A DNA stretch of 64,000 bases from an uncultured Bacteroidaceae bacterium (GTDB lineage: Bacteria; CAIWAD01). The DNA is taken from positions 25,848 to 89,847 of the forward strand of contig CAZMSD010000003.1 in NCBI GenBank assembly GCA_964568855.1, given 5' to 3'. The position numbers and the translations under genes are program-made. Positions 8,513 to 46,192 of the stretch are shown here, piece after piece. Below the pieces are notes generated by a model. The model did not search any database. It was not told the DNA's origin and saw only the letters and a list, made by a program, of their open reading frames with translations. Positions within the stretch are counted from its first letter, which is position 1. Every line of letters begins with the position of its first letter.

Positions 8513-9187
8513 ATGAGCTGGCTGAAAACCTTCGCGGGATCGTCCATCGGCAAGAAGCTGATGATGGCCGGCAGCGGCATCCTGCTGCTGCTTTTTCTTC
8601 TAGTCCACCTGCTGGGAAATCTGCAGATCTTCATCGGGGCCGATGCGCTCAACGCCTATGCCCATTTCCTGCATTCCAAGCCGGCCGTGGTCTGGATCTT
8701 CAGGCTGATCGTGGCGGCGCTGTTCGTCGTGCACATCGTCACTTCCATCGTGCTGTGGCTGGAAAACAAGGCCGCCCGTCCTGTCGCTTACCACAAGAAA
8801 GATACCCTCGAAGCCACCTTGGCCTCCAGGACCATGATCTACAGCGGCATCGTGATGGTGCTGTTCCTGGTCTACCACCTGCTGCACCTGACCGCCCACT
8901 CGGTGGGACCGGAACTGCACCAGGTTCACGGCGGACCCGACGTCTTCCGTGCCGTGGTGGACGGATTCAGCGCTGAGGTCTGGTGGATCCCGCTGATCTA
9001 CATCGTGGCCCAGGTTTTTCTTTTTCTACACCTGACCCACGCTTTCCAGAGCGCTTTCCAGACGCTCGGTCTGAATCACGCGAGATACACGCCGCTGATC
9101 CTGGCGGTGGGATGGATCTACGCGGCCGTGATCGCGCTGGGCAACATCCTGATTCCGGTGGCGGTTCTGGCCGGTTGGGTCTGCTGA
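8513..9187 (+). CDS. sdhC: Succinate dehydrogenase cytochrome b558 subunit (single large membrane anchor, type B SDH).
   Basis: 224 aa with 5 predicted TM helices and heme-ligand His residues in TM helices (HLLGNL, HIVTS, HLLHLT). It is followed by sdhA and sdhB. Confidence 0.8.
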   Translation: MSWLKTFAGSSIGKKLMMAGSGILLLLFLLVHLLGNLQIFIGADALNAYAHFLHSKPAVVWIFRLIVAALFVVHIVTSIVLWLENKAARPVAYHKKDTLEATLASRTMIYSGIVMVLFLVYHLLHLTAHSVGPELHQVHGGPDVFRAVVDGFSAEVWWIPLIYIVAQVFLFLHLTHAFQSAFQTLGLNHARYTPLILAVGWIYAAVIALGNILIPVAVLAGWVC

Positions 9188-11201: not shown

Positions 11202-11947
11202 AGCTGACACTCAAAGTCTGGCGGCAGGCTTCCGCCGATGCTCAGGGACGGATCGAGACCATCCAGACGCCCGACATCTCGACCCACATGTCCTTCCTGG
11301 AAATGCTCGACGTGGTCAACGAGATGCTCGAGCGCGAGGGCCGGGAACCCGTCGCCTTCGACCACGACTGCCGCGAGGGAATCTGCGGCACCTGCTCGCT
11401 GATGATCAACGGGCTGGCCCACGGTCCCTGGGAGGCCACCACGGTCTGCCAGCTGCACATGCGCGAGTTCAAGGACGGCGACACCATCGTCGTGGAACCA
11501 TGGCGGGCGCGGGCCTTTCCCGTGCTGCGCGACCTGATCGTGGACCGCGGCGCCTTCGACCGGATCGTCCAGGCCGGCGGCTACGTGAGCGTCAACACCG
11601 GGGGGATCCCCGACGCCAACGCCATCCCCATCCGGCGCAAGGAGGCCGAGCTCTCAATGGACGCGGCGGCCTGCATCGGCTGCGGGGCCTGCGTGGCGAG
11701 CTGCAAGAACGCCAGCGCCATGCTCTTCGTCAGCGCCAAGGTCAGCCAGTTCGCGCACCTGCCGCAGGGACAGCCGGAACGCATGGAGCGCGTGCATAGA
11801 ATGGTGGCGCGGATGGACGCGGAAGGCTTCGGCAACTGCACCAACCTCTACGAGTGCGAGGCGGCCTGTCCCAAGGAAATCAAGATCAGCAACATCGCGC
11901 TGATGAACCGCGACTTCTGCAGGGCCGGGTTCTGCGAAGCGGATTGA
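11198..11947 (+). CDS. sdhB: Succinate dehydrogenase iron-sulfur subunit.
   Basis: GTG start overlaps the sdhA stop. Cys clusters are present for 2Fe-2S ([10 protein letters not shown]), 4Fe-4S ([11 protein letters not shown]) and 3Fe-4S (CEAACPK). Confidence 0.9.
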
Positions 11948-18799: not shown

Positions 18800-19612
18800 T
18801 CACCCCGCGGATTTCAGGGCTTCGATGCTCGCCGAAATCACCACGTCTTCCAGGTTCCGCCCCGGCGACCAGCGACGGATCAGCTCGCGACTCTCCTCCC
18901 GGGGACGAATGCGGATCTCCACGAAGCCGGCCTCGGCTATCATGGATTCCAGGTCGTCGACGCTCGCGGCCCCCGTGATACAGGCGGAATAGTACTCGGC
19001 CTTCTCCAGCAGCTCGGCGGGAATCTCCCCCGCGGCCACCACGTCGGAGACCGCCAGCCGGCCCCCCGGCCGCAGCACGCGGTAGGCTTCGCGGAACACG
19101 GCAGGCTTGTCGGGCGAGAGGTTGATCACGCAGTTGGAGAGGATCACGTCCACGCTGCCGTCCGCCAGGGGCAGGCGCTCGATCTCGCCCAGGCGGAATT
19201 CCACGTTGTCGAGACGGCCGCGCTCGGCGTTCGCGCGAGCCTTGGACAGCATTTCCGGGGTCATGTCCACACCGATCACGCGGCCCTCTTCGCCCACTTT
19301 CCGGGCGGCCAGGAAGCAATCGAAGCCCCCGCCGCTGCCCAGGTCCAGCACGGTCTGACCCGGCCTCAGCGAAGCGATGGCCTGCGGATTTCCGCAGCCA
19401 AGGCCCATGTTGGCGCCCTCGGGCATCCCGGCCAGGTCCTCCCTGGTGTAGCCCATCTCGAGGGCCAGGTCCTCGGAGAGTTCCGCTCCGCCGTCCCCGC
19501 AGCATGAACTCGGGCCGCAACCGCAGTCCCCGGCCGCAGTCCGCTGAGCCACCGAAGCGTAGTTCTCGCGCACTTCCTGTCGGATTTCATTTCTGGTTTT
19601 CATATCGGACAC
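18800..19612 (-). CDS. arsM: Arsenite S-adenosylmethionine methyltransferase.
   Basis: The SAM-binding motif VLDLGSGGGFD is present. Conserved As(III)-binding Cys residues occur (CGCG...CC, LGCGNP, SNCVINL). Overall similarity is to ArsM/AS3MT. Confidence 0.8.
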   Translation of the reverse strand: MSDMKTRNEIRQEVRENYASVAQRTAAGDCGCGPSSCCGDGGAELSEDLALEMGYTREDLAGMPEGANMGLGCGNPQAIASLRPGQTVLDLGSGGGFDCFLAARKVGEEGRVIGVDMTPEMLSKARANAERGRLDNVEFRLGEIERLPLADGSVDVILSNCVINLSPDKPAVFREAYRVLRPGGRLAVSDVVAAGEIPAELLEKAEYYSACITGAASVDDLESMIAEAGFVEIRIRPREESRELIRRWSPGRNLEDVVISASIEALKSAG

Positions 19613-19674
19613 TCCTTTGGATTCGATTCCCTGGCAAGCACAGCGACGGAAGCACCGGGTGGACGATCAGTGGT

Positions 19675-20010
19675 TCACCGGTCTTCGTCCACGCGCATGC
19701 TGAAAACGGAAGCCAGAACGCGCGCCGCCTCCTCGTCCACCCAGCATTCCACGTGCCTGCCTCTGCGCTCCATGCGGATCAGGCCCGCCCTGCGCAGTTC
19801 CTTCAGGTGGTGGGATACGGTGGCCGGGGCCAGGTCCAGTCGATCCACCACGTTACCCACGCAACAGGCTTGCCCTTCCACCGGCCGGCAGACCCCGTTC
19901 CGGCCGCAGCAGTCAAGGTATTCCAGGAAGATCCTCAGACGATGGGGATTGGACAAGGCCTTGAACTGCTCGGCCAGTTGATTCAGTTCGATGATACTAT
20001 AATTCGACAT
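19675..20010 (-). CDS. arsR: ArsR/SmtB-family metalloregulator.
   Basis: The HTH segment is LSNPHRLRIFLEYL. A Cys-rich sensing segment DCCGRNGVCRPVEGQACC follows. It lies directly upstream of arsM. Confidence 0.8.
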   Translation of the reverse strand: MSNYSIIELNQLAEQFKALSNPHRLRIFLEYLDCCGRNGVCRPVEGQACCVGNVVDRLDLAPATVSHHLKELRRAGLIRMERRGRHVECWVDEEAARVLASVFSMRVDEDR

Positions 20011-20042: not shown

Positions 20043-20231
20043 CAAGTCGAAACGGCAGGCGGCGGCAGGCAGGACTCCTGGAATTGAAACTGGAACGGTC
20101 GGATGGTTATCGCCGGTCGGCGCCATGCCGGTGTCCCCTTGCGGAGTAACCGTTGCGCCTGAAACAAGGTGGGTCATGGAGCGGTGAGTTACACCGCAAG
20201 TAGATCAAGGTTTCCGGATCTTCGTGAGGGC

Positions 20232-21755
20232 TCAACCCAGCGAGCCCACTTCCTCCTCCACCGCCTCCAGCAGATCGCAGGAGCTCACCAGGGCCTTCAT
20301 GGCGTTGTGGTCGTCGTAGAGCGGCCGGTCCTCGTCCAGGAATTCCACGTGCTCACGGACCACCTGGCGGGCGCGCGTCACCCCAGCGCCCTTCCTGAAA
20401 TCGCGGAAATCCAGGGCCTGGGCGGCGGCCATCAGCTCGATGCCCAGCACGCCGCGGGCGTTGTCCAGGATCTGCAGGTTCTTCAGGGCCGTGTTCATGC
20501 CCATGGAGACGAAATCCTCCTGGTCCGCGGCGGCGGGGATGGACGCAACGGAAGCCGGGGCGGAAAGCATGCGCTGCTCGACGATCAGCGTGTCTGCGGT
20601 GTACTGGCTGAGCATCATGCCGGAGAACATGCCCGCGCCCTTGGTCAGGAAGGCCGGCAGACCCACGCTGAGGGCGGGATTGAGCAGCCTGTTGAGCCGC
20701 CGCTCGCTGAGCACGCTGACCATGGTGACGGCCGCCGAGACCATGTCCATGGGCAGGGAGACCGGGCTGCCCTGGAAATTGGCGCCCGTAAGCGTCAGCC
20801 GGTGCTCCGGCAGAAAGATGGGATTGTCGCCCACACCGTTGAGTTCGATCTCTACCTGCTGTTTCGCCCAGGCCAGGGCGTCGTGGGCGGCGCCGATCAC
20901 CTGCGGCGTGGAGCGCATGGAATAGGCGTCCTGCACCTTGACCTTCATCCTGCCGCTGAGCAGGTCGCTGCCCTCGATGCAGGACTTGATGGCCCGGGCG
21001 CTGCGCACGGCCCCCGCGAAACCGCGGACCTCGTGCAGGCGCACGTCGTAGGGCTTCAAATTGGCCAGCAGGGCCTCCAGGGTCATGGCGGCGGCGATCT
21101 CGGCCTGCTTGAGCCAGCGGTTGAAGTCGTGGAGTTCCAGCGCGCTGATGGCGGTCAGCAGGTTGGAACCGTTGATCGTGGCCAGGCCGTCGCGGGCGCG
21201 CAGGCCGGGAATAGGGATCCCGGCGCGTTCCAGGGCCGCGGCGCCCGGCAGGCGTTCTCCCCGGTAGAAGGCCTCGCCCTCCCCCATCATCAGCAGCGCA
21301 ATCTGGGACATGGGCGACAGGTCGCCGCAGGCTCCCACGGAGCCCTTTTGACAGACTACCGGGGTGACGCCCCGGTTGAGCATCTCCAGCAGGGTCAGGG
21401 TGATCTCGGGGCGGCAGCCGCTGTGCCCGTGGGCGTGAACGTTGATCCTCCCGGCCATGGCTCCCCGCACGTGCTCGACGGGCGCCGGCTCGCCGATGCC
21501 GGCGGAATGGTTGTAGATCAGGTAGCGCTGGAACTGCTTGACCTGCTCGTCGTTGAGCACGATCTCCGCCAGCTCGCCGATGCCGGTGTTCACGCCGTAC
21601 ATGATTTCCCGGGCCTCGATCTTCTCCTCGAGCATCGCCCGGCAGGTCTTGATGCGCTGCAGCGCGTCGGGATGCAGTTCCGCGCGTTCGTTGTCCCGCG
21701 CGATGCGGACGAGGTTTTCCACGTTGAGGTTCGCGCCGTCCAGGACGATGGCCAT
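20232..21755 (-). CDS. Histidine ammonia-lyase family enzyme (HAL/PAL, MIO-dependent) with a non-canonical Ala-Cys-Gly triad.
   Basis: 507 aa from MAIVLDGANL. It has strong HAL-family signatures (GVNTGIGE, QKGSVGACGDLSP, NPIF). The codon at 21329-21327 is TGC (Cys143) where Ser of the MIO-forming ASG triad is expected. No hutU or hutI is nearby. Confidence 0.85.
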   Translation of the reverse strand: MAIVLDGANLNVENLVRIARDNERAELHPDALQRIKTCRAMLEEKIEAREIMYGVNTGIGELAEIVLNDEQVKQFQRYLIYNHSAGIGEPAPVEHVRGAMAGRINVHAHGHSGCRPEITLTLLEMLNRGVTPVVCQKGSVGACGDLSPMSQIALLMMGEGEAFYRGERLPGAAALERAGIPIPGLRARDGLATINGSNLLTAISALELHDFNRWLKQAEIAAAMTLEALLANLKPYDVRLHEVRGFAGAVRSARAIKSCIEGSDLLSGRMKVKVQDAYSMRSTPQVIGAAHDALAWAKQQVEIELNGVGDNPIFLPEHRLTLTGANFQGSPVSLPMDMVSAAVTMVSVLSERRLNRLLNPALSVGLPAFLTKGAGMFSGMMLSQYTADTLIVEQRMLSAPASVASIPAAADQEDFVSMGMNTALKNLQILDNARGVLGIELMAAAQALDFRDFRKGAGVTRARQVVREHVEFLDEDRPLYDDHNAMKALVSSCDLLEAVEEEVGSLG

Positions 21756-21917
21756 CGGGTCCTCCGTTGGGGCCTGTTTGTCTGTTGCCGCCGGGCCCGC
21801 GTGCGGGGCTGCTCCAGCGTTTTTGGATCTGCCCAAGATACACTCGCCGGGGCTTCAGCCCAACCGGGGAGGCGCAGAAATGCCATATTTCCGTCCAGCA
21901 AGGAAGGCCCCGCCGTG

Positions 21918-23605
<1,688 letters not shown>

Positions 23606-23609
<4 letters not shown>

Positions 23610-25003
23610 ATCACGCGGACCGGGGCGAGGAGTCCTGCACCGTACTGCTGGCCGACGACGAGAAACTGCAGCGGGAGACCCTGGCCGGTTTCCTGCGCGG
23701 CGCGGGCTACCGGGTGCTGGAAGCCTCCGACGGCCGGGAGGCCCTCGAAGCGGCGCGGCGCGAGACGGTGGACCTGGTACTCACCGACCTGCGCATGCCG
23801 GAGCTCGACGGACACGGCCTGCTGCGCGAGCTGAAAGGGATGAACCCCTCCGTAGCGGTGATCGTGATGACCGCCTACGGCACGGTCGAATCGGCCGTGG
23901 AGGCCATGCAGGCGGGTGCCTTCAGCTACCTGACCAAGCCCGTGGACCTCAAGGAGCTGGCCCTGCTTCTGGACCGCGCTCAGGAGCTGAGGGAACTCGT
24001 GCGCGAGAACCGCCGGCTCCGCGAGCGCCTGGGCGAGATCGAGGAAGCCGAGCTGGTGGCGCGGACTCCCGAGATGCGCGAGGTCCTGGGAGTCGTGTCG
24101 CGGGCCGCGCCGACGAAGGCTTCGGTGCTGATCACCGGCGAGTCGGGCACGGGCAAGGAGCTGATCGCCCGCGCGCTGCACGGGGCCTCGCCCCGCCACG
24201 CGGGCCCCTTCGTGGCGGTCAACCTGGCGGCGATCCCCGAAGCGCTCGTCGAGAGCGAGCTCTTCGGGCACGAAAAGGGAGCCTTCACGGGCGCTGCGGA
24301 GCGGCGCATCGGCCGCTTCGAGCGCGCCGACGGGGGCACGCTGTTCATCGACGAGGTGGGCGACATGCCCGCGTCGGCGCAGGTCAAGCTGCTGCGGGTG
24401 CTGCAGGAGCACCGCATCGAGCGCGTGGGCGGCGGCCGGCCGATTCCCGTGGACATCCGCGTGGCGGCGGCCACTCACCAGCCCCTGGAGGAGCTCGTCC
24501 GCGGGGGCCGCTTCCGCGAGGACCTGTATTACCGCCTGAACGTGATCAGGCTGAAGCTACCGCCACTGAGGGCGCGCCGGGAGGACATCCCCGAGCTGCT
24601 GGAACACTTCCTGGGCAAGTGTCGCGACGCGATCGGCAAGGAAGTGCGGGGCTTCGACCGCCGCGCCCTGGACCTGCTGATGAAGTATCGCTGGCCGGGC
24701 AACATCCGCGAGCTGGCCAACGCGGTTGAAAGCGCCGTGGTACTGGCCAGGCGGACTCTGATCAGCGCCGGGGACCTGCCCGAAGAGATCCGGCATGCAG
24801 GCGGCGCAGCCGGGCCGACGGACGATACCGGCGACCGGGACGAAGCCGCGACGCCCCTGCGCGAGCGCCTGGAGAGCTTCGAGAAAGCGGCGGTGCTGAA
24901 AGCGCTGGAGGATTGCGGGGGCAACCGCAGCAAGGCCGCGCGCAGACTGGGCCTGAGCGAAAAGAACATCCGCGATCGCCTGAAGCGCTGGCAACTGGGA
25001 TAG
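23606..25003 (+). CDS. Sigma-54-dependent response regulator (NtrC/ZraR family bacterial enhancer-binding protein).
   Basis: It has a receiver domain (LLADDE...LVLTDLRMPELDG). The AAA+ sigma-54 activator domain carries Walker A GESGTGKE and ESELFGHEKGAFTGA (a GAFTGA motif). The C-terminal Fis-type HTH is GNRSKAARRLGLSEKNIRDRLKR. Confidence 0.9.
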
Positions 25004-25048
25004 AAATCGCCGTCCCGCCGGTGGGATCTTCGCGGACCGCATCGAATG

Positions 25049-25064
25049 TGGCACAAGGTTTGCA
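25049..25064 (+). promoter_or_regulatory. Sigma-54 (-24/-12) promoter TGGCAC-aaggt-TTGCA.
   Basis: It is a perfect match to the TGGCAC-N5-TTGCW consensus. It ends 32 nt upstream of the ATG at 25096 and lies immediately downstream of the enhancer-binding protein gene. Confidence 0.7.
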
Positions 25065-25095
25065 CTTACCGACGCTGGTTAATGCGAGCGCGTAA

Positions 25096-25521
25096 ATGAT
25101 GTATACCAGGCGACTGACAACGGGCCTGCTGCTGGCCTTGACATTTTCCCTGTCCGGCATGGACCGGCCTGGGCAGGAAGGCGTCGCAGTCGACAGCTGC
25201 TTCGTCGACCTGGACGGGAACTGCTACTGTGATACGGCGGCGGACGCCGACGGCAACGGCATCCCCGATGCCCTGGAATTCGACAGGAAGGCCGGCGCGA
25301 AGCGGATCCGCTGGGCCCATTTTCGTTCGGTTCCGGACAGCCTTGGCGGCGACAGCCTGGCCTTCCGCCGCTGGTGGGAAGCCGGTTCACGACCCTTCGG
25401 CGCCGCGGAGGCCTGGCGCAGCTGGGGGGAATGGACCGGCGCAGGGGAGAGCTCGGAATCCTGTTCCTGCACCTGTGGCTGCCCGCGCTGCCGCTGTCGC
25501 CACTGCCGGCGCCAGCCCTGA
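25096..25521 (+). CDS. Small secreted Cys-rich protein, a candidate periplasmic metal-binding protein under sigma-54 control.
   Basis: 141 aa. It has a signal peptide MMYTRRLTTGLLLALTFSLSG. An Asp-rich Ca-binding-like motif DLDGNCYCDTAADADGNGIPD follows. The C-terminal cluster is CSCTCGCPRCRCRHC. GC3 is high in frame. A perfect sigma-54 promoter lies upstream. It is unrelated in sequence to ZraP. Confidence 0.5.
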   Translation: MMYTRRLTTGLLLALTFSLSGMDRPGQEGVAVDSCFVDLDGNCYCDTAADADGNGIPDALEFDRKAGAKRIRWAHFRSVPDSLGGDSLAFRRWWEAGSRPFGAAEAWRSWGEWTGAGESSESCSCTCGCPRCRCRHCRRQP

Positions 25522-25597: not shown

Positions 25598-25639
25598 TTC
25601 GACCCGCAAGTCGAAGGTTTCGACCTTTTCGTCGAATCC
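25598..25639. promoter_or_regulatory. Array of alternating half-sites TTCGAC/GTCGAA; candidate upstream activator sequence for the NtrC-type regulator.
   Basis: The array reads TTCGAC-n5-GTCGAA-n3-TTCGAC-n6-GTCGAA (25599-25636). It lies 85-120 nt upstream of the sigma-54 promoter at 25720, the usual enhancer-binding distance. Confidence 0.4.
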
Positions 25640-25719: not shown

Positions 25720-25735
25720 TGGCATCCTCTTTGCC
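25720..25735 (+). promoter_or_regulatory. Sigma-54 promoter TGGCAT-cctct-TTGCC upstream of the efflux operon.
   Basis: The spacing is GG-N10-GC. It lies ~50 nt upstream of the outer-membrane-factor start at 25786. Confidence 0.55.
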
Positions 25736-25785
25736 TTGTGCAGGCCGACCGCAAGGATCGGCAACCGGCAAAGAAAGAGCCCGCG

Positions 25786-27114
25786 ATGTACCGTGTCCCC
25801 GCCATCCAGTTCCTCCTGCAGATGACCGTCGCCGCGCTCGGCTGCCTGTGGCTGCTGCCGGCATGCTCCCGGGCGGCTACCCTGGACAGCTACATCGAGG
25901 AAGCTCTGCGAAATCACCCGGGACTGGCCGCCGCAGAGGCGGATCGCCTGGCGGCCGGGGAACAGGTCCTGAAAGCGGGGGTCCTGCCCGATCCCAGGCT
26001 CAGTTACGCGGGGTATCTCAGCCCCGTGGAGACTCGGGTGGGCCCGCAGCGCCAGGCACTGGCGTTGTCGCAGGCCCTTCCCTGGCCTGGGATCCTGGAC
26101 CTGCGCACCGAGTCCGCGAGGGCGGGCGTCGATCTGGCGGGGCAGAACCTGAGAGCGCTCCGGCTGAACCTCGTACACCGTGTGACACGGGCCTACGCCG
26201 ACTACTGGCTGCTGGGCCGCACGATCCGTAACACGGAAGAGCGGTTGGAGCTGCTGGCGGAGCACGCCGGCGCGGCCGAGACCGGCTACCGCAACGGCAC
26301 CCACGGCTACTCCGACCTGCTCGAGGTCCAGATGCGACAGGCGCGCGCGGATGAGGAGCTGGCGAGGTTGAACCTGAGTCGCCCCGCCCTGCAGGCGCGT
26401 CTCAACAGCCTGCTCGGGCGCGTCCGGTCTGCGGAGCACGCCTGGCCAGAGGAGCTCCCGGCCTGCGACACCCTGCCCGCGGAAAAGGTTCTGGTCGAGA
26501 GACTGCGGACCGCCAATCCCGAGTTGACGGCCCTGGCGGCGGAACTGCAACAGAACCGGGCACGTCTCGGCCTGTCGCGCCGGGAGGGCCTTCCGGCGCT
26601 GAGCCTCGGCCTGAAATGGATCCAGACGGACGAAGCCGCCATGCCAGGGGTGGAGGACAGCGGTAAGGATCCCCTGCTGCTCAACCTGGCGCTCAAGATC
26701 CCTGTCTGGCGGAAAGCCGTAAAGGCCGACGTAAGACGATCCGAGCTGCTGCTGGCAAAAAGCCGCCACCGCGCGGAGGACCGGGAGCTTGAGCTGGCGG
26801 CCGAGTTGGAACGGCTGCTCTACGCGCACCGGGAGGCCGGGCTGACGGTTGAACTGCACGAGCGCGAGCTGATCCCGCGGAGCGAGGCCGTACTGGAGGC
26901 CAGGCGCCTGGATCACGCCACGGGACGCGTGGATTTCGAGGTTCTGCTGCGCGCCGTCGAGCAACTGCTCGACCAACGCCTGGAGCTGGACCGGGCCAGG
27001 GCCAGGCTGCTGGACAGCCGCGCGGCGCTCGACGCGCTGACCGGCGCCGGCCGCCTTGAATCGACCGGGGCCGCCGGAAGCTCGAGCATGGGCTCCGGCG
27101 GCCAAGAGGAGTGA
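25786..27114 (+). CDS. Outer-membrane efflux factor (TolC/CzcC family).
   Basis: The product starts MYRVPAIQFLLQMTVAALGCLWLLPA, a signal peptide. It has the two outer-membrane-factor repeat halves with coiled-coil regions. The ORF track start at 25738 adds 16 aa. Confidence 0.8.
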   Translation: MYRVPAIQFLLQMTVAALGCLWLLPACSRAATLDSYIEEALRNHPGLAAAEADRLAAGEQVLKAGVLPDPRLSYAGYLSPVETRVGPQRQALALSQALPWPGILDLRTESARAGVDLAGQNLRALRLNLVHRVTRAYADYWLLGRTIRNTEERLELLAEHAGAAETGYRNGTHGYSDLLEVQMRQARADEELARLNLSRPALQARLNSLLGRVRSAEHAWPEELPACDTLPAEKVLVERLRTANPELTALAAELQQNRARLGLSRREGLPALSLGLKWIQTDEAAMPGVEDSGKDPLLLNLALKIPVWRKAVKADVRRSELLLAKSRHRAEDRELELAAELERLLYAHREAGLTVELHERELIPRSEAVLEARRLDHATGRVDFEVLLRAVEQLLDQRLELDRARARLLDSRAALDALTGAGRLESTGAAGSSSMGSGGQEE

Positions 27115-28538
27115 ACATGATAGAGCGAAGAGCGAACGTCTGGATCCTGATCCTCGGTCTGCTGCTGCTGGCCTTCGCCGCGGGGCGCCTGTCCACCCGA
27201 TTCGATGCGCCCGCGACGGGCGTCGACGGCGTGAATCAGGTATCACAGGACCAGACGGAATGGACCTGCTCGATGCATCCGCAGATCCGGCTGGCCGAAG
27301 CCGGCGACTGCCCCATCTGCGGGATGGAACTGGTACCCGTCGAGAGCGGTGAAGTCGGCGGACACGCTGAGGAAGCTGAGCGGGACGGCGGGGCCGCAGC
27401 AGGCTACGCCTGCGCCATGAACTGCGTGCCGCCCCTGCCCGAACCCGGCGACTGCCCGATCTGCGGCATGGAGATGGTGCCCGTGGGCGGTCCCGGTCCG
27501 GGTGTCACACAAAGCGGGGAGGAATCTCCCTTCTTCGAGCTCGACCGGCGGGCCCGCGACCTGGCCCGCCTCGAGACCAGCCCGGTCCGACGCCGCTACC
27601 TGGAGGCGGAGATCCCGCTCTACGGACGGTTCACGGTCGACGATAACCGGCTGGCGGACATCACTTCCTGGACGGCCGGAAGAATCACCAGGCTCCACGT
27701 GAAGACCGAAGGGCTGCGGGTCCGCCGCGGCGCACCGCTCTACGACATCTACAGTCCGCAGCTGATCGCCGCCCAGGAGGAGCTGCTGCTGGGATACGGC
27801 GGCGAGAGCGCCCGCGAGAAACTGCGCCTGCTGGGGCTTGACGCCGAGTCGATCTCCGGGATTGAGGAGGAAGGCTCGCCGCGCGAGGTGCTGACCATCC
27901 GCGCCCCCGCGGCAGGGACCGTGCTCGAGCTGCCGGTGCGCGAGGGCGACTACGTGCGCGAGGGCAGCCTGCTCTTCCGCATCGCCGACCTCTCCCGGCT
28001 CTGGCTGTGGTTAGAGGTCTACGAGGCCGACCTGTCTCTGGTTCACGAGGGTCTGACCCTGGAATACGAGGTGGAGGCCCATCCGGGCCGGAGCTTCAAG
28101 GCGACGATCGACTACCTGGATCCGGCCTTGGATCCCGGTACGCGCAGCCTGGGCGTCCGCGCCGCGGTTGACAACTCCGCCGGCCTCCTGAAGCCCGAGA
28201 TGTTCGCCGGCGGCACCCTCAGGTCGGTGTTGCGCCGGGAGGGCGGTTTTCCCCTCAGCGTTCCCGCCTCGGCGCCTCTGTTCACGGGCCGCCGCGCCCT
28301 GGTTTATGTTGAGGCTGAAGTGGGCCGCTACGAGGCTCGCGAAGTGCGACTGGGCCGCCGCGCCGGCGACTACTACGAGGTGCTCGAGGGCCTGGCGGAA
28401 GGCGAAGCCGTCGTGATACGGGGCGCCTTCAAGATCGACAGCTCGCTGCAGATCCAGGGCCGTACCAGCATGATGCAGCCCGAACCGGATGAATCGTCCG
28501 TGACACACGGAATCGGGGCGGGACATCATGGCCACTGA
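27111..28538 (+). CDS. Membrane fusion protein (CusB-like) with two N-terminal DCPICGM metal-binding modules.
   Basis: The GTG start overlaps the outer-membrane-factor stop. A TM segment is followed by CSMHPQIRLAEAGDCPICGMELVPV and CAMNCVPPLPEPGDCPICGMEMVPV, matching the heavy-metal-binding domain found in CusB/CopB-type fusion proteins. The remainder is the fusion-protein barrel-sandwich/beta-barrel region. Confidence 0.85.
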   Translation: MNMIERRANVWILILGLLLLAFAAGRLSTRFDAPATGVDGVNQVSQDQTEWTCSMHPQIRLAEAGDCPICGMELVPVESGEVGGHAEEAERDGGAAAGYACAMNCVPPLPEPGDCPICGMEMVPVGGPGPGVTQSGEESPFFELDRRARDLARLETSPVRRRYLEAEIPLYGRFTVDDNRLADITSWTAGRITRLHVKTEGLRVRRGAPLYDIYSPQLIAAQEELLLGYGGESAREKLRLLGLDAESISGIEEEGSPREVLTIRAPAAGTVLELPVREGDYVREGSLLFRIADLSRLWLWLEVYEADLSLVHEGLTLEYEVEAHPGRSFKATIDYLDPALDPGTRSLGVRAAVDNSAGLLKPEMFAGGTLRSVLRREGGFPLSVPASAPLFTGRRALVYVEAEVGRYEAREVRLGRRAGDYYEVLEGLAEGEAVVIRGAFKIDSSLQIQGRTSMMQPEPDESSVTHGIGAGHHGH

Positions 28539-31500
28539 GCGCGGAAGTATCACCGAAATCCCTGCGGAGCCGCGGCGGACCGAGGATCTGCTCACGCGGC
28601 TGATCCGCTTCACCCTGGATTTCCGCTTCATCGTCGTCCTGGGCCTGCTGGTGCTCTTGGGCTGGGGTCTGCGCACTGCGCCCTTCGACTGGGAGCTGGG
28701 CGGACTGCCGCGCGACCCGGTGGCAGTGGACGCCATTCCGGACATCGGCGAGAACCAGCAGATCGTCTTCACCCGCTGGCCCGGACGCTCTCCCCAGGAC
28801 GTGGAGGATCAGCTCACCTATCCCCTCAGCGCCAACCTGCTGGGCCTGCCCGGCGTCAAGACCGTCCGGGCCTATTCCATGTTCGGCTTCTCCACGATCT
28901 ACGTGATCTTCGAGGAGCAGGTGGAGTTCTACTGGTCGCGCTCCCGGCTGCTGGAGAAACTGGCCAGCCTCCCCCCCGGCCTCCTGCCCGAGGACGCCAC
29001 TCCCGTGCTGGGTCCGGACGCCACGGCCCTGGGCCAGGTCTTCTGGTACACCCTTCAGGGCGCCGACGCCGAAGGCAATCCCACCGGTGGCTGGGACCTC
29101 GCCGAGCTGCGCAGCATCCAGGACTGGAACGTCCGCCTGGCCCTGATGTCGGTCGAGGGCGTCAGCGAGGTGGCCTCGGTGGGCGGCTTCGTCCAGGAAA
29201 TCCAGGTGGACGTGGATCCCGACGCCATGCGGGCGCGCTCGGTGAGCCTGGCGGACGTGATGCACGCCCTGAAAATGGCCGGAGCGGAAACCGGGGCTGG
29301 CAGCATCGAGATCAACCGGGTGGAATACGTGGTCCGCGGCGTGGGTTTCGTCAGGGAACTCGGGGACGTGGAAGAGGCCGTGATCCGCAGTGAGGGAGGC
29401 ACCCCCGTGCGGATCCGCGACGTGGCCCGGGTGGTTCTCGGTCCGGCGCCCCGCCGCGGCGCGCTGGACGTGGGCGGCGCGGAGGCCGTGGGCGGCGTGG
29501 TGGTGGTGCGCTACGGGGAGAATCCCCTGGCCGCCATCCAGGCCGTCAAGCGGAAAATCGCCGAGATCTCGCCCGGCCTGCCCCGCAAAACGCTGCCCGA
29601 CGGCGTGGAGAGCCAGGTCCGCATCGTGCCCTTCTACGACCGCACGCAACTGATCCATGAAACGCTGTCGACGCTCAACGACGCGCTGGTGGGCGAGATC
29701 CTGGTGACCCTGATCGTGGTGCTGCTGATGGTGCGCCACCTGCGCAGCTCGCTCCTGATCGCCGGCCTGCTGCCGGCCGCCGTGCTGATCTGCTTCATCG
29801 CCATGAAACTGGGCGGCGTGGAAGCGAACATCGTGGCTCTCTCCGGCATCGCCATCGCCATCGGCACCATGGTGGACATGGGCATCGTGGTCAGCGAGAA
29901 CATCCTGAGACACCTGGCGGAAGACGCGGGCGGAGGAAAACCTCGCGGGCGCGTCCTCAAAGCCACGCGCGAGGTGGCCGGCGCAGTGCTCACGGCCCTG
30001 GCCACCACGGTGGTCAGCTTCCTGCCGGTCTTCACATTGGAGGCCGCCGAGGGGAAGCTCTTCCGTCCCCTGGCCTATACCAAGACCTTCGCCCTAGTGG
30101 CGGCCCTGCTGCTGGCCCTGGCCGTGATCCCGCCCCTGGCCGAATTCCTGTTCACCCGCCGTCTCCGTCGCGGCGGAGTCCTCGGCCTGGGACTGTTGCT
30201 GGCCACGGCGGGAACCTGGCTGCTGTTCGGCGCCTACCCCGCCGCGGGCCTGCTGGTGCTGCTGGCCGGCCTGGTTAAACTGGCGGAACCCTGGCTGCCC
30301 GGCGCCCTGGAGCCCTGGCGCAGGAAACTGGACCTGGCCCTGGTGGTGCTCCTGGCCGCATACTGGCTCGCCGAGCACTGGCTGCCGCTGGGGGGCGACC
30401 GGCCCTTCGCGCTTAACCTGGCCCTGGTGGCCTTGCTGATCTTCGGGCTGCTGGCCTTCTACCGGCTGGTCCTGCGCTCCTACGACGGGTTGCTCGACTG
30501 GTGCCTGTCGCACAAGACGGTGTTCCTCGCGCTGCCCCTGTCCATGCTCGTGCTGGGTGGCCTGATCTGGAGCCGCACGGGGGACGAATTCATGCCCCCG
30601 CTGGACGAGGGTTCCTACCTCTTCATGCCCAGCACCATGCCCCACGCCTCCATGAGTGAAGTGCAGGAAGTGCTGCAGTACCAGGACGCGAGCATCCTGA
30701 ACATCCCGGAAGTATCACAGGTCGTGGGCAAGCTGGGCCGGGCGGAGACGCCGCTGGACCCCGCGCCGCTGTCCATGATCGAGACCGTGATCAACTACCT
30801 GCCGGAGTACCTGCAGGGCGCCGAGGGCGGTCCGCGGCGCTTCCGCTTCGATCCCGACAGCGTGGACCTGGTGCGCGACGCGGAAGGCCGCCCCCTGTCG
30901 GCGCCGGACGGTGAGCCCTATCGAAGCCGCGGCGCCTACCCCCGCGACTCGGAGGGGCGCCTGATCCCCGACGCGGGCGGGCGCTACTTCCGCAACTGGC
31001 GCGCGGCGCTGGATCCCGGGCTGAATCGCGGGCGCGCCGCCTGGGAGGGCATTCAGCGGCCGGACGACATCTGGTCGGAAATCGTTCGCGCGGGCGAGAT
31101 CCCCGGAACCACTTCGGCGCCGAAACTGCAGCCCATCTCCACGCGCCTGGTGATGCTGCAGAGCGGCATGCGCGCCCCCATGGGGATCAAGATCAAGGGC
31201 CCCGACCTGAAGAGCATCGAGAGCGCCGCGCTGAAGATCGAAGAGCTGCTGCGGGAGATTCCCAGCGTCAACAGGCTGGCGGTGGTGGCCGACCGCGTGG
31301 TGGGCAAGCCCTACCTGGAACTGCACGTGGACCGCGAGCGGATCGCCCGCTACGGCATCAGCATGGGCGCGGTGCAGGAAGTGATCGCCGCCGCGGTGGG
31401 CGGGCGCACCCTGGCCCACAGCGTGGAAGGCCGGGAGCGCTACGCCGTGCGGGTACGCTACCAGCGCGAGGAGCGCGACAACCTCGAGGCCCTGCGCCGG

Positions 31501-32409
31501 ATCTACGTGCCGGCGCCGGACGGCCGTCGCGTTCCCCTGGAGCAGCTGGCCGAGCTGCGCTACCAGCGCGGCCCCCAGATGATCAAGAGCGAGGACAATT
31601 TCCTTCTGGGCTACGTGCTCTTCGACGGCCGCGAAGGCCTGGCCGAGGTGCAGGTGGTGGAAGAGGCCCGGCTTGAAATCGAGCGGCGCCTGGCGGAGGG
31701 CGAGCTGGTCCTGCCCTCGGGAGTGAGTCTGAGTTTCGCGGGGACCTACGAGAACCAGCTGCGCGCCGCCCGAAAGCTGCTGGTGGTCATTCCGCTGGCC
31801 CTGGCGATCATCCTGGTGCTGCTCTTCCTGCAGTTCCGCTCGCTGGGCACCACCGTCCTGGTCTTCAGCGGGGTGGCCGTGGCCTGGGCCGGGGGCTTCC
31901 TGCTGATCTGGCTCTACGGGCAGCCCTGGTTCCTGGACTTCGAGATCTTCGGCGCCCAGTTCAGGGAGCTCTTCCAGGTGCATCCCGTGCATCTCAGCGT
32001 GGCGGTCTGGGTGGGTTTCCTGGCTCTCTTCGGCATCGCCACCGACGACGGGGTGATCATGGCCACCTACCTGGACCAGAGCTTCCGCAGTCGCAGGCCC
32101 GGGAGCCCGCACGAGATCCGTGAAGCCGTCAAGGAGGCCGGCGGCCGGCGGGTGCGGCCCTGCCTGATGACCACGGCCACCACGGTCCTGGCCCTGCTGC
32201 CCGTCCTGAGTTCCCAGGGCCGCGGCGCGGACGTGATGGTGCCGATGGCGATTCCCGTCTTCGGCGGAATGCTGGTGGAGGTGGTCACCATGTTCACCGT
32301 GCCGGTGCTCTATTCCGCCGCGAAGGAATGGCGCCTGCGGTCCCGGTCGCCGGGCCCGGACCGCGACGTCCGGGACGCGGACTCGCTGATCGCGGAAAGC
32401 CGACCATGA
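28528..32409 (+). CDS. Heavy-metal efflux RND transporter (CusA/CzcA-like), extended 1293-aa form.
   Basis: Its HME-RND core is homologous to the czcA at 1791-4886. It carries ~250 extra residues: four additional hydrophobic helices after TM6 (approx aa 545-680) and an insertion in the second periplasmic loop (approx aa 740-860, rich in R/D/P). Confidence 0.85.
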   Translation: MATERGSITEIPAEPRRTEDLLTRLIRFTLDFRFIVVLGLLVLLGWGLRTAPFDWELGGLPRDPVAVDAIPDIGENQQIVFTRWPGRSPQDVEDQLTYPLSANLLGLPGVKTVRAYSMFGFSTIYVIFEEQVEFYWSRSRLLEKLASLPPGLLPEDATPVLGPDATALGQVFWYTLQGADAEGNPTGGWDLAELRSIQDWNVRLALMSVEGVSEVASVGGFVQEIQVDVDPDAMRARSVSLADVMHALKMAGAETGAGSIEINRVEYVVRGVGFVRELGDVEEAVIRSEGGTPVRIRDVARVVLGPAPRRGALDVGGAEAVGGVVVVRYGENPLAAIQAVKRKIAEISPGLPRKTLPDGVESQVRIVPFYDRTQLIHETLSTLNDALVGEILVTLIVVLLMVRHLRSSLLIAGLLPAAVLICFIAMKLGGVEANIVALSGIAIAIGTMVDMGIVVSENILRHLAEDAGGGKPRGRVLKATREVAGAVLTALATTVVSFLPVFTLEAAEGKLFRPLAYTKTFALVAALLLALAVIPPLAEFLFTRRLRRGGVLGLGLLLATAGTWLLFGAYPAAGLLVLLAGLVKLAEPWLPGALEPWRRKLDLALVVLLAAYWLAEHWLPLGGDRPFALNLALVALLIFGLLAFYRLVLRSYDGLLDWCLSHKTVFLALPLSMLVLGGLIWSRTGDEFMPPLDEGSYLFMPSTMPHASMSEVQEVLQYQDASILNIPEVSQVVGKLGRAETPLDPAPLSMIETVINYLPEYLQGAEGGPRRFRFDPDSVDLVRDAEGRPLSAPDGEPYRSRGAYPRDSEGRLIPDAGGRYFRNWRAALDPGLNRGRAAWEGIQRPDDIWSEIVRAGEIPGTTSAPKLQPISTRLVMLQSGMRAPMGIKIKGPDLKSIESAALKIEELLREIPSVNRLAVVADRVVGKPYLELHVDRERIARYGISMGAVQEVIAAAVGGRTLAHSVEGRERYAVRVRYQREERDNLEALRRIYVPAPDGRRVPLEQLAELRYQRGPQMIKSEDNFLLGYVLFDGREGLAEVQVVEEARLEIERRLAEGELVLPSGVSLSFAGTYENQLRAARKLLVVIPLALAIILVLLFLQFRSLGTTVLVFSGVAVAWAGGFLLIWLYGQPWFLDFEIFGAQFRELFQVHPVHLSVAVWVGFLALFGIATDDGVIMATYLDQSFRSRRPGSPHEIREAVKEAGGRRVRPCLMTTATTVLALLPVLSSQGRGADVMVPMAIPVFGGMLVEVVTMFTVPVLYSAAKEWRLRSRSPGPDRDVRDADSLIAESRP

Positions 32410-32471
32410 ACGATTCGAACCGAAACGATAAACGACCGCTGACATACAACTGGAAACAAAAGGAGCACAGA

Positions 32472-33071
32472 ATGAAGATCATCCTCCTCGCCGCTCTCGG
32501 CCTGATGCTGGGCCTGGCGGTGCCCGATACCGAAGCGGGATGTCCTCCCGGATGCGACAAGGCCTGCTGCGCCGGCGTCCCGTCCGCTACTGCGACTGAG
32601 CATGAGCATCCCGGTCATTCCGCAGTGGAAGTGAAGCGGGGCGGAGCCGCGCCCGAACACCCCGCTGCCCCGGCTGAACTTCCCGTCCTCAAGGAGAGCT
32701 ATCCCTGGACCACCTGTCCCATCAGCGGCCTGGAGCTGGGATCCATGGGCGATCCCTATTCCATCGAGCTGGAGGGGCTGACCGTCAGACTCTGCTGCGA
32801 CGGCTGCGAGAAGAAGGCCCGGGCCAGGGCCGCGGAGATCACGGCCGATCTCAGGAAGGCAGTCATCGAGCGCGACTCCCGGGATTATCCCCTGGAGGAA
32901 TGCCTGACCTGCGGAATGCATCTCAAGGATGGACGCGGCCTGGACATGGTTCACGGCAGCACCATGGTGCGGCTCTGCGGTGAAATGTGCCGCGTCAGTT
33001 TCGAAGGGGATCCCGAGGCGCGGGTCCAGCAGGTCCTGCGAGCCCGGAACGAGCAGGCGAAGAGGCAGTAG
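32472..33071 (+). CDS. Periplasmic Cys-rich protein with two YHS-type metal-binding domains.
   Basis: An AGGAG RBS precedes the start. The signal peptide is MKIILLAALGLMLGLA. The N-terminal cluster is CPPGCDKACCAG. Two YHS-like modules follow (TCPISGLEL...RLCCDGCEKKA and CLTCGMHLKDG...RLCGEMCRVSFEGDPEA). The ORF track start at 32328 is too long. Confidence 0.65.
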   Translation: MKIILLAALGLMLGLAVPDTEAGCPPGCDKACCAGVPSATATEHEHPGHSAVEVKRGGAAPEHPAAPAELPVLKESYPWTTCPISGLELGSMGDPYSIELEGLTVRLCCDGCEKKARARAAEITADLRKAVIERDSRDYPLEECLTCGMHLKDGRGLDMVHGSTMVRLCGEMCRVSFEGDPEARVQQVLRARNEQAKRQ

Positions 33072-45135: not shown

Positions 45136-45777
45136 CTAGCGGGCGGACGGGCAGAGCGCGACCAGCACGCAGTCGCCGCAGCGGGGCCGCCGGGCCACGC
45201 AGACCGCCCGGCCGTGGTCGATCACGCGGTGGGTGAAGCCCACCCATTCCTCCTCGGGTAAAAGCTCCATCATCTCCCGCTCGATCTTCACCGGGTCCCT
45301 GGTGGCCACCAGCCCCAGCAGGTTGAGAATCCGCACCATGTGGGTGTCCACCACCAGGGCGGGAATTCCATGCCAGGTACCGAGTACGCAGCTGGCCGTC
45401 TTGCGTCCCACGCCCGGCAGGGCCACCAGCCGCTCCAGGCTGTCGGGCACCATTCCGCCGTGTTCTTCGACAATGGCGCGGCTGGATCCAATGATGCTTT
45501 TCGATTTCTGGTTGTGATATCCGCATGAGCGGATGTCCTCGGCCAGTTCCTCCGGGCGGGCGCCGGCGAAATGCTCAGGGCCGGGATACTTTCTGAACAA
45601 TTCCGGCGTGACCTGGTTGACGCGCGCATCGGTGCACTGGGCCGACAGAATGGTGGCCACCAGGAGCTGGTGCGCCGATTCGAAACCCAGGCCGCAGACG
45701 GAATGCGGATAGGCTTCTCTGAGCCTTCCGGCAGCTGCGCGCGCGCGCCGCTTCAGCTTTGTACGATCCGCTTGCAT
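45136..45777 (-). CDS. nth: Endonuclease III (DNA glycosylase/AP lyase).
   Basis: Motifs include LLVATILSAQCTD, the HhH-GPD motif LPGVGRKTA, and the C-terminal 4Fe-4S cluster loop C-x6-C-x2-C-x5-C (CVARRPRCGDCVLVALC). Confidence 0.85.
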   Translation of the reverse strand: MQADRTKLKRRARAAAGRLREAYPHSVCGLGFESAHQLLVATILSAQCTDARVNQVTPELFRKYPGPEHFAGARPEELAEDIRSCGYHNQKSKSIIGSSRAIVEEHGGMVPDSLERLVALPGVGRKTASCVLGTWHGIPALVVDTHMVRILNLLGLVATRDPVKIEREMMELLPEEEWVGFTHRVIDHGRAVCVARRPRCGDCVLVALCPSAR

Positions 45778-46192
45778 GACCGCCTCGAGTGAACGCCGAC
45801 TGATAAAATATGAAACGCCCGCTGACCGAAATCAGCGGACGCTGGTTGGTACATCGCCCTCCAACCCGAAACCCATCCCCCATGCTTCAGGATCGGCAGG
45901 GTGACGACTGAATTATCCTGCAAACCGCAAGCCTCGTGCCAATCAGACAAAGAATACTTGGTTAAGCTAAGATTATTGACTTGCACTCAGCTGGATATTT
46001 CCCGAGCCCGATTCTGAACAGACGCCCGCGGAAAACGGGCGGATATTGAACATTTCAATTAAGGGACATCATCCAGGCCGTCGGAATGGCTGTCCCCGGG
46101 CCCTCGAGTCTAAAGACGCCCCATTGGATTGTCGATTTCAAGGATACGCACATGGCGAGTAATAGTGCACCCGCCGATGCCCCAGGCTGAAC

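Follow-up and report, generated by a model that had tools for sequence, protein, structure and literature searches.

A small exported protein with a Cys-rich tail, encoded between a sigma-54-dependent regulator gene and a Cus-like pump operon, is a probable metal-binding helper

Which role is played by a small gene that is situated between a sigma-54-dependent regulator gene and a metal efflux operon and that is preceded by a sigma-54 promoter of its own? This question is raised by a 64,000-nt stretch of DNA from an uncultured Bacteroidaceae bacterium (contig CAZMSD010000003.1, positions 25,848 to 89,847), which is referred to below, at its whole length, as the window and in which positions are counted from the first letter. 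The open reading frame (ORF) in question encodes 141 amino acids (aa), and an initial annotation had proposed that its product is a periplasmic metal buffer or sensor accessory, functionally analogous to ZraP. Small periplasmic proteins such as ZraP, CusF, SilE and CzcE often decide how resistance systems for copper, silver and zinc sense the metal or hand it over, and to our knowledge all examples of this kind come from Proteobacteria. The comparative analysis presented here indicates that the small protein is probably a new periplasmic metal-binding helper of a system that combines a sigma-54-dependent regulator with a copper-silver-type pump. The coordinates of the features are compiled in Table 1.

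The small ORF is a real gene, since the GC content at third codon positions (GC3) is raised in frame, the product is called in metagenomes and homologues were found with E-values of 1e-40 to 1e-56; its mature product is presumably an envelope protein of about 12 kDa. The high in-frame GC3 that had been remarked on in the initial annotation amounts to 0.80, a value near those of the neighbouring genes (0.76-0.90), while the two alternative frames reach 0.61 and 0.63. An identical product is called in two metagenome contigs of the Joint Genome Institute (JGI), for which 3300013118 and 3300013119 are the source samples, in the 140-aa version that starts at a second ATG at position 25099. The N-terminus consists of the charged sequence MMYTRR followed by the hydrophobic stretch LTTGLLLALTFSL (residues 7-22) and by SG, a signal-peptide layout that had been recognised before and is common to all homologues. 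Ten Cys residues are present in the whole protein, seven of them (not nine, as had been counted) within the 15-residue tail, and the C-terminal end reads CSCTCGCPRCRCRHCRRQP. A search with hmmscan against Pfam and NCBIfam assigned the 141-aa protein to zero families and no match at family level was obtained in the PDB, in agreement with the earlier statement that no described family fits. The metallothionein families of Pfam gave no match, and the likeness to them is confined to the short CxC-rich tail. Likewise, no description of the family was found in the literature on sigma-54, CusA and cysteine-rich periplasmic proteins.

The first database search returned the identical product from the two JGI contigs and one 178-aa protein with 49% identity over residues 36-113, and a search from this 178-aa relative yielded 43 small secreted proteins annotated as "hypothetical". 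These share the invariant double Asp-loop block FVDxDGDGFNDLAPDxDGDGIPDxLDPD, to which a closer subset adds RSxPDSxxxDSxxFRxWWE...WxxAWxxW and, behind it, tails rich in Gly, Arg and Asn. When the trimmed core was used for an exhaustive HMMER search, 979 matches were obtained, most of which comprise only the Asp loops in giant repeat proteins, and the matches over the whole core formed about 30 clusters at 50% identity. Three of these clusters share the ending of the window protein and a final profile search added two further ones, with endings such as ...NCACGCLRCRCLH, ...PCHCGCKRCRCIH and ...GCGCGCIRCRCSH; including the window protein, the Cys-tail branch comprises six proteins with a mutual identity of 42-47%. 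In all six the residues C125, C127, G128, C129, R131, C132, R133, C134 and H136 of the motif CxCGCxRCRCxH are invariant, and the window tail carries two Cys beyond the conserved five Cys and one His. Comparison of the DNA of the Cys-tail loci revealed synonymous codon differences within the tail. Because the tail is invariant at this level of overall identity and its codons have changed synonymously, the Cys cluster is, on comparative grounds, under selection at the protein level. Conservation of the ORF and of its Cys cluster, on which the initial annotation had made its proposal depend, was found.

The window protein shows the features of the family as a whole, namely the signal peptide, the loops FVDxDGDGxND..DxDGDGxPD and the helices PDSxxxDSxxFxxWW and AWxxW, as well as those of the Cys branch, namely the CxCGCxRCRCxH end and a gene position between the regulator gene and a Cus-like pump. 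A profile search of genome contigs gave at least six relatives, recognised by an Asp-loop match alone, among the matches listed. A metagenome scan with the Cys-tail alignment gave no match, and none of 47 metagenome loci found with a DNA pattern for the tail encodes a family member. One distant relative bears the precomputed label PF27309.1, which is unconfirmed. As judged from sequence comparison, the small protein belongs to a rare and undescribed family, is a member of none of the ZraP, CusF and SilE families, and would fill a known niche.

The genomic context links the small gene to one kind of two-component system. Every relative with readable context adjoins the genes of a kinase (about 555-585 aa) and of an NtrC-type regulator (about 455-466 aa), and the orthologues beside NtrC-type regulators for which the initial annotation had advised a search do exist. 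In the window, the genes of the kinase, the regulator and the small protein all lie on the + strand with the small gene immediately downstream of the regulator gene, and the divergent arrangement described earlier has to be given up. From end to end, periplasmic domain included, the kinases of the related loci share 35-39% identity with the window kinase; the regulators share 53-60% identity with the window regulator. Against the ZraR model the window regulator scored 433 bits and against the ZraS model the kinase scored 174 bits, both below the cut-offs of the models. The periplasmic domain of the window kinase (about 255 aa) has no Pfam match, and these domains are homologous across the Cys-tail branch and the branch with Gly-rich tails. 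Conserved Cys, His or Met ligands, or a cluster of them, were sought in the periplasmic domains of the Cys-branch kinases and none was found, which fits a delegation of metal recognition to a partner. An ORF of 1146 aa (20169-23609, +) is an over-extension of the kinase gene, the true ATG of which is at 21918, and the 5' part of this ORF overlaps an aromatic amino-acid lyase gene on the opposite strand (20232-21755, -).

The output genes differ between the two branches. Four Cys-tail loci with context were compared, namely the window and the loci L017, L018 and L019, and in all four the genes of the kinase, the sigma-54-dependent regulator and the Cys-tail protein are followed by those of an outer-membrane factor (OMF), a membrane-fusion protein (MFP) with HMBD motifs and a long transporter (1265-1293 aa) of the resistance-nodulation-division (RND) family. 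A gene for a TRASH-like protein trails the RND gene in the three loci that reach that far, the contig of L019 ending inside the RND gene. The metal pump that had been annotated downstream is present in the form of a heavy-metal efflux (HME) RND system. The window RND protein scored 639 bits to E. coli CusA versus 393 bits to ZneA, and M573, M623 and M672 of CusA all align to Met (LFMPST, PLSMIET and RLVMLQSG). Because this Cu(I)/Ag(I) Met triad is kept and the pump is closest to CusA, the pump is considered Cus-like, and its metal is more likely to be copper or silver than zinc. Gly-tail small genes (L001, L007, L008, L009 and L010) are always followed by the gene of a secreted protein of about 350 aa and not by a pump. 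Both modules occur together in one Delongbacteria metagenome-assembled genome (sample ERZ24842191), the Gly-tail module as L010 and the Cys-tail module as L019.

Further observations were made on these output proteins. The OMF gene was called from a GTG at 25738; the in-frame ATG at 25786 is preferred as its likely start because the GTG precedes the predicted transcription start of the second sigma-54 promoter (P2) and the lipobox-like LLPAC follows the ATG. The HMBD motifs of the MFP (WTCSMHPQ...CPICGM and YACAMNC...CPICGM) replace the Met-rich N-terminus of E. coli CusB. The RND protein exceeds E. coli CusA by about 240 aa, with similar lengths in L017 and L018 (1265-1269 aa), and its insertions comprise residues 541-645 (hydrophobic, like extra membrane helices) and 761-838 (rich in Asp, Arg and Pro). 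The TRASH-like protein contains 12 Cys and 7 His, the sequence GCPPGCDKACCAG near its N-terminus and two repeats of the type YPxxxCPISG...LCCDGC with a weak TRASH-domain match; its homologues occur in L017 and L018, and the size range is 177-221 aa. Further downstream in L017 lie the genes of a multicopper oxidase and of a P-type ATPase with HMBD. The partner of about 350 aa (for example at 7578-8636 of L007) belongs to an uncharacterised family with the conserved motifs DxEAGLQ and GGxDPGELLWDGW, for which no Pfam domain, no PDB relative and no homologue in the window were found; that it is a diverged OMF was rejected by an hhalign probability of 0.2%.

The regulatory DNA is conserved together with the genes. 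Promoter P1, which had been described as an exact consensus match, is the only exact match to TGGCAC-N5-TTGCW in 64 kb, and the start codon of the small ORF lies 31 nt past it; the looser pattern TGGCAY-N5-TTGC has 3 matches as compared with 0.27 expected. Equivalents of P1 are located 28-36 nt (from the -12 GC to the ATG) before the small genes of L017, L018 and L019, where they are embedded in a C-terminal extension of 10-18 codons of the regulator gene, after the helix-turn-helix (HTH) region (TGGCACggagcTTGCC, AGGCACggatcTTGCC and TGGCCCgggaaTTGCC), and are followed by good Shine-Dalgarno sequences. With a promoter-like background of about 1e-4 per nt, or about 0.004 per 40-nt window, an occurrence in three of three loci by chance has a probability of about 6e-8. 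Because of this recurrence at three orthologous loci and of the homologues named above, the combination of promoter and ORF is not due to chance. Two elements that were not part of the initial annotation, P2 and a tandem perfect palindrome, lie between the ORF and the pump genes. The two palindromes are the only exact matches to TTCGAC-N6-GTCGAA in 64 kb, and the same pair is present directly past the stop codon of the small gene in L017, L018 and L019 as well as upstream of the Gly-tail small genes in L007, L008, L009 and L010. Because the same pair thus accompanies Gly-tail genes beside regulators that are 53-60% identical, the palindrome is in all likelihood bound by the regulators of this family and is a candidate enhancer. 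Equivalents of P2 precede the OMF gene in the three related Cys-tail loci, and P1, the palindrome pair and P2 are kept in position in all four. The pair is about 550 bp downstream of P1 and 84-122 bp upstream of P2. Sigma-54-like elements were also seen near the Gly-tail genes of L008 and L010.

A scan for sigma-70 promoters and terminators revealed no sigma-70 promoter on the + strand and one terminator-like match (25610-25624), in which the inner half-sites of the palindromes can pair (GTCGAAggtTTCGAC), followed by CTTTTCG. A terminator between the small gene and the pump was rejected, as the match is not conserved and the T-run is missing in the relatives. A scan against Rfam gave a spurious miRNA match only and no RNA element. 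In L009, which has its genes in another order (small gene, partner, kinase, regulator), additional TTCGAC-N6-GTCGAA sites are located before the kinase gene (8678-8695) and after the regulator gene (11888-11905), which suggests autoregulation and a further target.

The core of the protein consists of Asp-rich loops and helices. The first loop, FVDLDGNCYCD, is degenerate and carries two Cys in place of a G and an N. The second loop, DADGNGIPDALE, is a canonical Ca loop of the DxDxDG type, with D50, D52, N54, I56 and E61 at ligand positions 1, 3, 5, (7) and 12, and contains the DxDGNGxxD motif of the initial annotation as D50-A-D-G-N-G-I-P-D58. F36, D38, D46, D50 and P57 do not vary among 44 relatives, and D52, D54 and G55 are almost constant. 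A weak local match to domain 1 of anthrax protective antigen (residues 174-193) was obtained, in which the layout of the second loop agrees with that of DRDNDGIPDSLE, presumably the Ca site of that protein. A Pfam scan of eight relatives at E<=1 produced only sub-threshold FG-GAP, dockerin and EF-hand motif matches (E 0.002-0.5); membership of the dockerin, thrombospondin type-3 or EF-hand domains at the Pfam gathering score was not reached, and the window protein was without a match. Unlike dockerins and thrombospondin type-3 domains it has two loops, the first of them degenerate, and no repeat array. The loop sequences suggest binding of Ca2+. An AlphaFold2 (AF2) model, built with 21 sequences, comprises helix 4-19 (the signal peptide), a loop region (36-57) and helices 58-65, 73-76, 87-96 and 103-114, the last two with a predicted local distance difference test score (pLDDT) of 81-91. 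A folded core of about 80 residues is kept across the family.

With moderate confidence we regard the small gene as the first sigma-54-dependent gene of a Cus-like module and favour for its product the role of a soft-metal-binding accessory or co-sensor. In this scheme the membrane kinase would phosphorylate the NtrC-type regulator, which would occupy the tandem TTCGAC-N6-GTCGAA enhancer and switch on sigma-54 RNA polymerase at P2, about 100 bp downstream, for the pump operon. By DNA looping it would probably also activate P1, about 550 bp upstream, for the small gene, the product of which would be exported via its N-terminal signal. The DxDxDG-type loops would fold around Ca2+ and the Trp-rich helices would form a compact core, and the flexible tail, with five conserved Cys, one His and two extra Cys, would bind metal through its thiolates, presumably Cu(I)/Ag(I) or some other soft ion. 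As a metal-binding accessory or co-sensor the protein would then contact the kinase and exert feedback like ZraP or CpxP. This role is favoured because the core travels with the kinase and the regulator whatever the tail or the output genes, and because the Cys-branch kinases are without conserved periplasmic Cys, His or Met ligands. A stronger version, unlikely in our estimate, makes the small protein itself the periplasmic receptor of the signal, a modular plug-in co-sensor, with one enhancer serving both P1 and P2. Its core of Ca loops and Trp-rich helices would dock on the periplasmic domain of the kinase, and its exchangeable tail would set the signal, with Cys5His next to Cu/Ag pumps and Gly/Arg/Asn-rich tails next to the envelope protein of about 350 aa; both of the tandem sigma-54 promoters would respond to the enhancer that lies between them, which would act on the upstream one across the small gene, over a distance of about 0.5 kb.

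Several points weigh against the accessory or co-sensor role and the regulation proposed for it. Only six Cys-tail clusters were found, all of them from uncultured bacteria. Export is presumed from a signal peptide judged by eye, and the AF2 model is moderate only (pLDDT 72.5 and predicted template modelling score 0.45 overall), with a tail of low confidence. The Asp-loop and Trp-helix core is not metal-specific, because Cys-less Gly-tail relatives adjoin the same type of regulator pair without a pump, and the partner of about 350 aa that accompanies them points rather to a role at the outer membrane. The tail Cys could form disulfides and not metal sites in a periplasm that is oxidising. Near P1 there is only a palindrome copy with three mismatches and upstream of it no canonical enhancer, and the use of the downstream enhancer by P1 is presumed from the arrangement of the elements. 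Since the small gene begins only 11-27 nt past the regulator gene in three relatives, it could just share a transcript with the genes of the kinase and the regulator. P1 would be activated from the enhancer about 550 bp downstream, or else would add to transcription that runs on from the kinase and regulator genes. That sigma-54 activators can act through enhancers placed downstream is known from experiments with NtrC and from the ftr elements of Caulobacter.

Among the alternative roles, that of a chaperone or buffer ranks a close second to that of a co-sensor, at almost the same probability, since Cys tail and pump coincide, the tail being present only at Cus-like pump loci (four of four). 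As a pure metallochaperone or buffer, similar to CusF or SilE/PcoE, the protein would capture Cu(I) or Ag(I) in the periplasm and pass it to the HMBD of the MFP or to the Met site of the CusA-like transporter and would take no part in signalling, which is possible in this strict form, if doubtful. No CusF homologue was seen in the module, and E. coli CusCBA requires a small periplasmic chaperone (PMC6235853), to which Sil adds the disordered SilE (PMC10407283). This role is also favoured by the many Cys-based sites of the pump partners themselves (the HMBD pair and the TRASH-like protein). On the other hand, the core is common to pump-less Gly-tail relatives with the same kinase and regulator; moreover, in three loci the small gene lies close behind the regulator gene, outside the pump operon, and is parted from the pump by the enhancer and P2. 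An improbable alternative is a structural or stress protein of the envelope or outer membrane that binds no metal, has a disulfide knot as its tail and acts with the OMF or the protein of about 350 aa. It would explain why the Gly-tail small gene always precedes the gene of that protein, with the same enhancer and promoter, and Ca-type loops such as those of the core are typical of extracellular proteins; however, the switch to the Cys5His tail coincides exactly with the switch to the Cu/Ag pump, the two supposed partners are unrelated by the hhalign comparison, and an odd number of conserved Cys together with a conserved His fits metal ligation better than disulfides.

Control in cis was considered as well, by which the nascent exported peptide would sense metal and act on the downstream genes as a regulatory leader. 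A small exported Cys-containing ORF upstream of copper-resistance genes has a reported precedent in CutF and cutO (PMC9973294), but the gap of 216 nt to the pump genes holds the enhancer and an independent sigma-54 promoter, ...CRCxH is the ending of five of the six members and a Pro-rich arrest motif is not conserved, and a folded core of the size given above is maintained; the C-terminal arrest motif of CutF and its translational coupling to the next gene were not found in the window, which makes a leader very improbable. Scarcely credible is a spurious ORF, in which the promoter would serve the pump only and the Cys run would be an accident of GC-rich (TGC/CGC) DNA. The pattern C.CGC.RCRC.H does arise by chance off-frame in such DNA, and the peptide pattern occurred in 18 ORFs of the 47 metagenome loci, all of them Cys/Arg-rich runs of off-frame appearance. 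Nevertheless, the protein is conserved over its full length with synonymous changes and conserved synteny, P1 is conserved, Shine-Dalgarno sequences are present in the relatives and the pump has its separate P2, and the comparative data refute a spurious ORF for practical purposes.

The accessory or co-sensor proposed here can be compared with several known systems. ZraP of E. coli and Salmonella is a small periplasmic metal-binding accessory that is transcribed from a sigma-54 promoter under the control of an adjacent NtrC-type system and feeds back on this system (PMC4987338). The part of the earlier analogy that stands is the predicted sigma-54 promoter of the small gene beside an NtrC-type two-component system; the divergent orientation does not, and the Cus-like pump is more likely to serve Cu/Ag than zinc. 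Whereas zraP is divergent, the small gene is co-directional with the regulator gene and downstream of it; His/Glu-bound Zn in ZraP is set against the proposed Cys thiolates, and the output in the window is a Cus-like pump with the enhancer downstream of the small gene. The earlier view that the protein is not homologous to ZraP was confirmed for sequence and fold, in that the window protein has no match to the LTXXQ/CpxP family of Pfam, which stands for ZraP, CpxP and Spy, and the relatives are negative at E<=1. CusF, likewise small and periplasmic, supplies a CusCBA-type pump with the Cu(I)/Ag(I) that it binds (PMC6235853), and the window protein is similarly encoded with a CusA-like pump bearing the Met triad. 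CusF is a beta-barrel with a Met2His/Trp site and a gene between cusC and cusB, whereas the window protein has no Pfam match to CusF, is composed of helices, loops and a Cys5His tail and is encoded before the OMF gene behind a sigma-54 promoter of its own. Genes of SilE and PcoE lie next to the two-component genes of Cu/Ag efflux clusters. SilE is a largely disordered small periplasmic metal binder of such a cluster (PMC10407283). In contrast to the His/Met motifs along the chain of SilE/PcoE, the window protein has a compact C-terminal Cys cluster on a folded Ca-loop core, without homology. The alternating CxC spacing of the tail recalls metallothioneins and Mac1/Ace1. The polycopper motif of yeast Mac1, CxCx4CxCx2Cx2H, provides five Cys and one His, the same ligand set as in the window tail, and is of value as a lead only; the spacing in the window differs, and its motif is presumably extracytoplasmic and forms a 12-residue tail on a larger domain.

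If the proposed role is true, an unrelated protein family does a comparable job in uncultured lineages such as Delongbacteria. In the envelope, a polynuclear Cu(I) site could be built from the compact Cys5His tail, and the comparison of the Cys-tail and Gly-tail branches would represent a natural experiment in the rewiring of a two-component module towards another signal. The layout of promoter, gene, enhancer and promoter is unusual and offers a testable natural case of a downstream or shared sigma-54 enhancer. As the family is rare and known from uncultured bacteria, its importance appears moderate for now.

Table 1. Coordinates of the features of the small-gene module (window positions unless a related locus is named)
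Feature	Position	Strand	Details
Sensor histidine kinase	21918..23609	+	563 aa; transmembrane helices 3-27, 284-310; HisKA, HATPase_c
NtrC/ZraR/AtoC-type sigma-54-dependent response regulator	23606..25003	+	receiver, AAA+ sigma-54 activator (Sigma54_activat), Fis-type HTH
Degenerate palindrome copy	25029..25046	.	3 mismatches; abuts P1; significance uncertain
Sigma-54 promoter P1, TGGCACaaggtTTGCA	25049..25064	+	for small gene
Small exported protein gene	25096..25521	+	141 aa; Cys-tail branch of undescribed family
Predicted Sec signal peptide or N-terminal anchor	25096..25161	+	residues 1-22; sequence layout; AF2 helix 4-19
Two Asp-rich loops	25201..25278	+	residues 36-61; FVDLDGNCYCD, then DADGNGIPDALE
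Conserved helical core	25309..25437	+	residues 72-114; RWAxFRxxPDSxxxDSxAFxxWW ... AWxxWxxWT; invariant alignment columns
Cys-rich tail CSCTCGCPRCRCRHC	25462..25506	+	residues 123-137; 7 Cys + 1 His
Tandem perfect palindromes TTCGACccgcaaGTCGAA and TTCGACcttttcGTCGAA	25598..25615 and 25619..25636	.	TTCGAC-N6-GTCGAA, 21 bp apart
Sigma-54 promoter P2, TGGCATcctctTTGCC	25720..25735	+	for pump operon
OMF (OEP family, CusC-like)	25786..27114	+	lipobox-like LLPAC
MFP (CusB/CzcB type)	27117..28538	+	two N-terminal HMBD metal-binding motifs
CusA-like HME-RND transporter	28528..32409	+	1293 aa, two insertions; Cu(I)/Ag(I) Met triad
Secreted Cys/His-rich protein	32406..33071	+	221 aa; two TRASH-like CPISG...LCCDGC repeats; last module gene
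Promoter-bearing regulator extensions	L017 9955-9973; L018 9959-9977; L019 4040-4076

Additional observations concern the surroundings of the module. A gene of the PF06491 type (disulfide-isomerase/bacilliredoxin-like) flanks the Cys-tail module in two of the four loci (L018, 18324-18830, -; L019, 219-728, -) and has no homologue in the window. A third sigma-54-like site of the window, TGGCACgaggcTTGCG (45927-45941, -), precedes an endonuclease III-like gene (45136-45777, -) by about 150 nt and probably matches by chance. Directly before the module, on the minus strand, the genes of an ArsR-family HTH protein and of an S-adenosylmethionine (SAM)-dependent methyltransferase (18800-20010) possibly form another metal or metalloid determinant.

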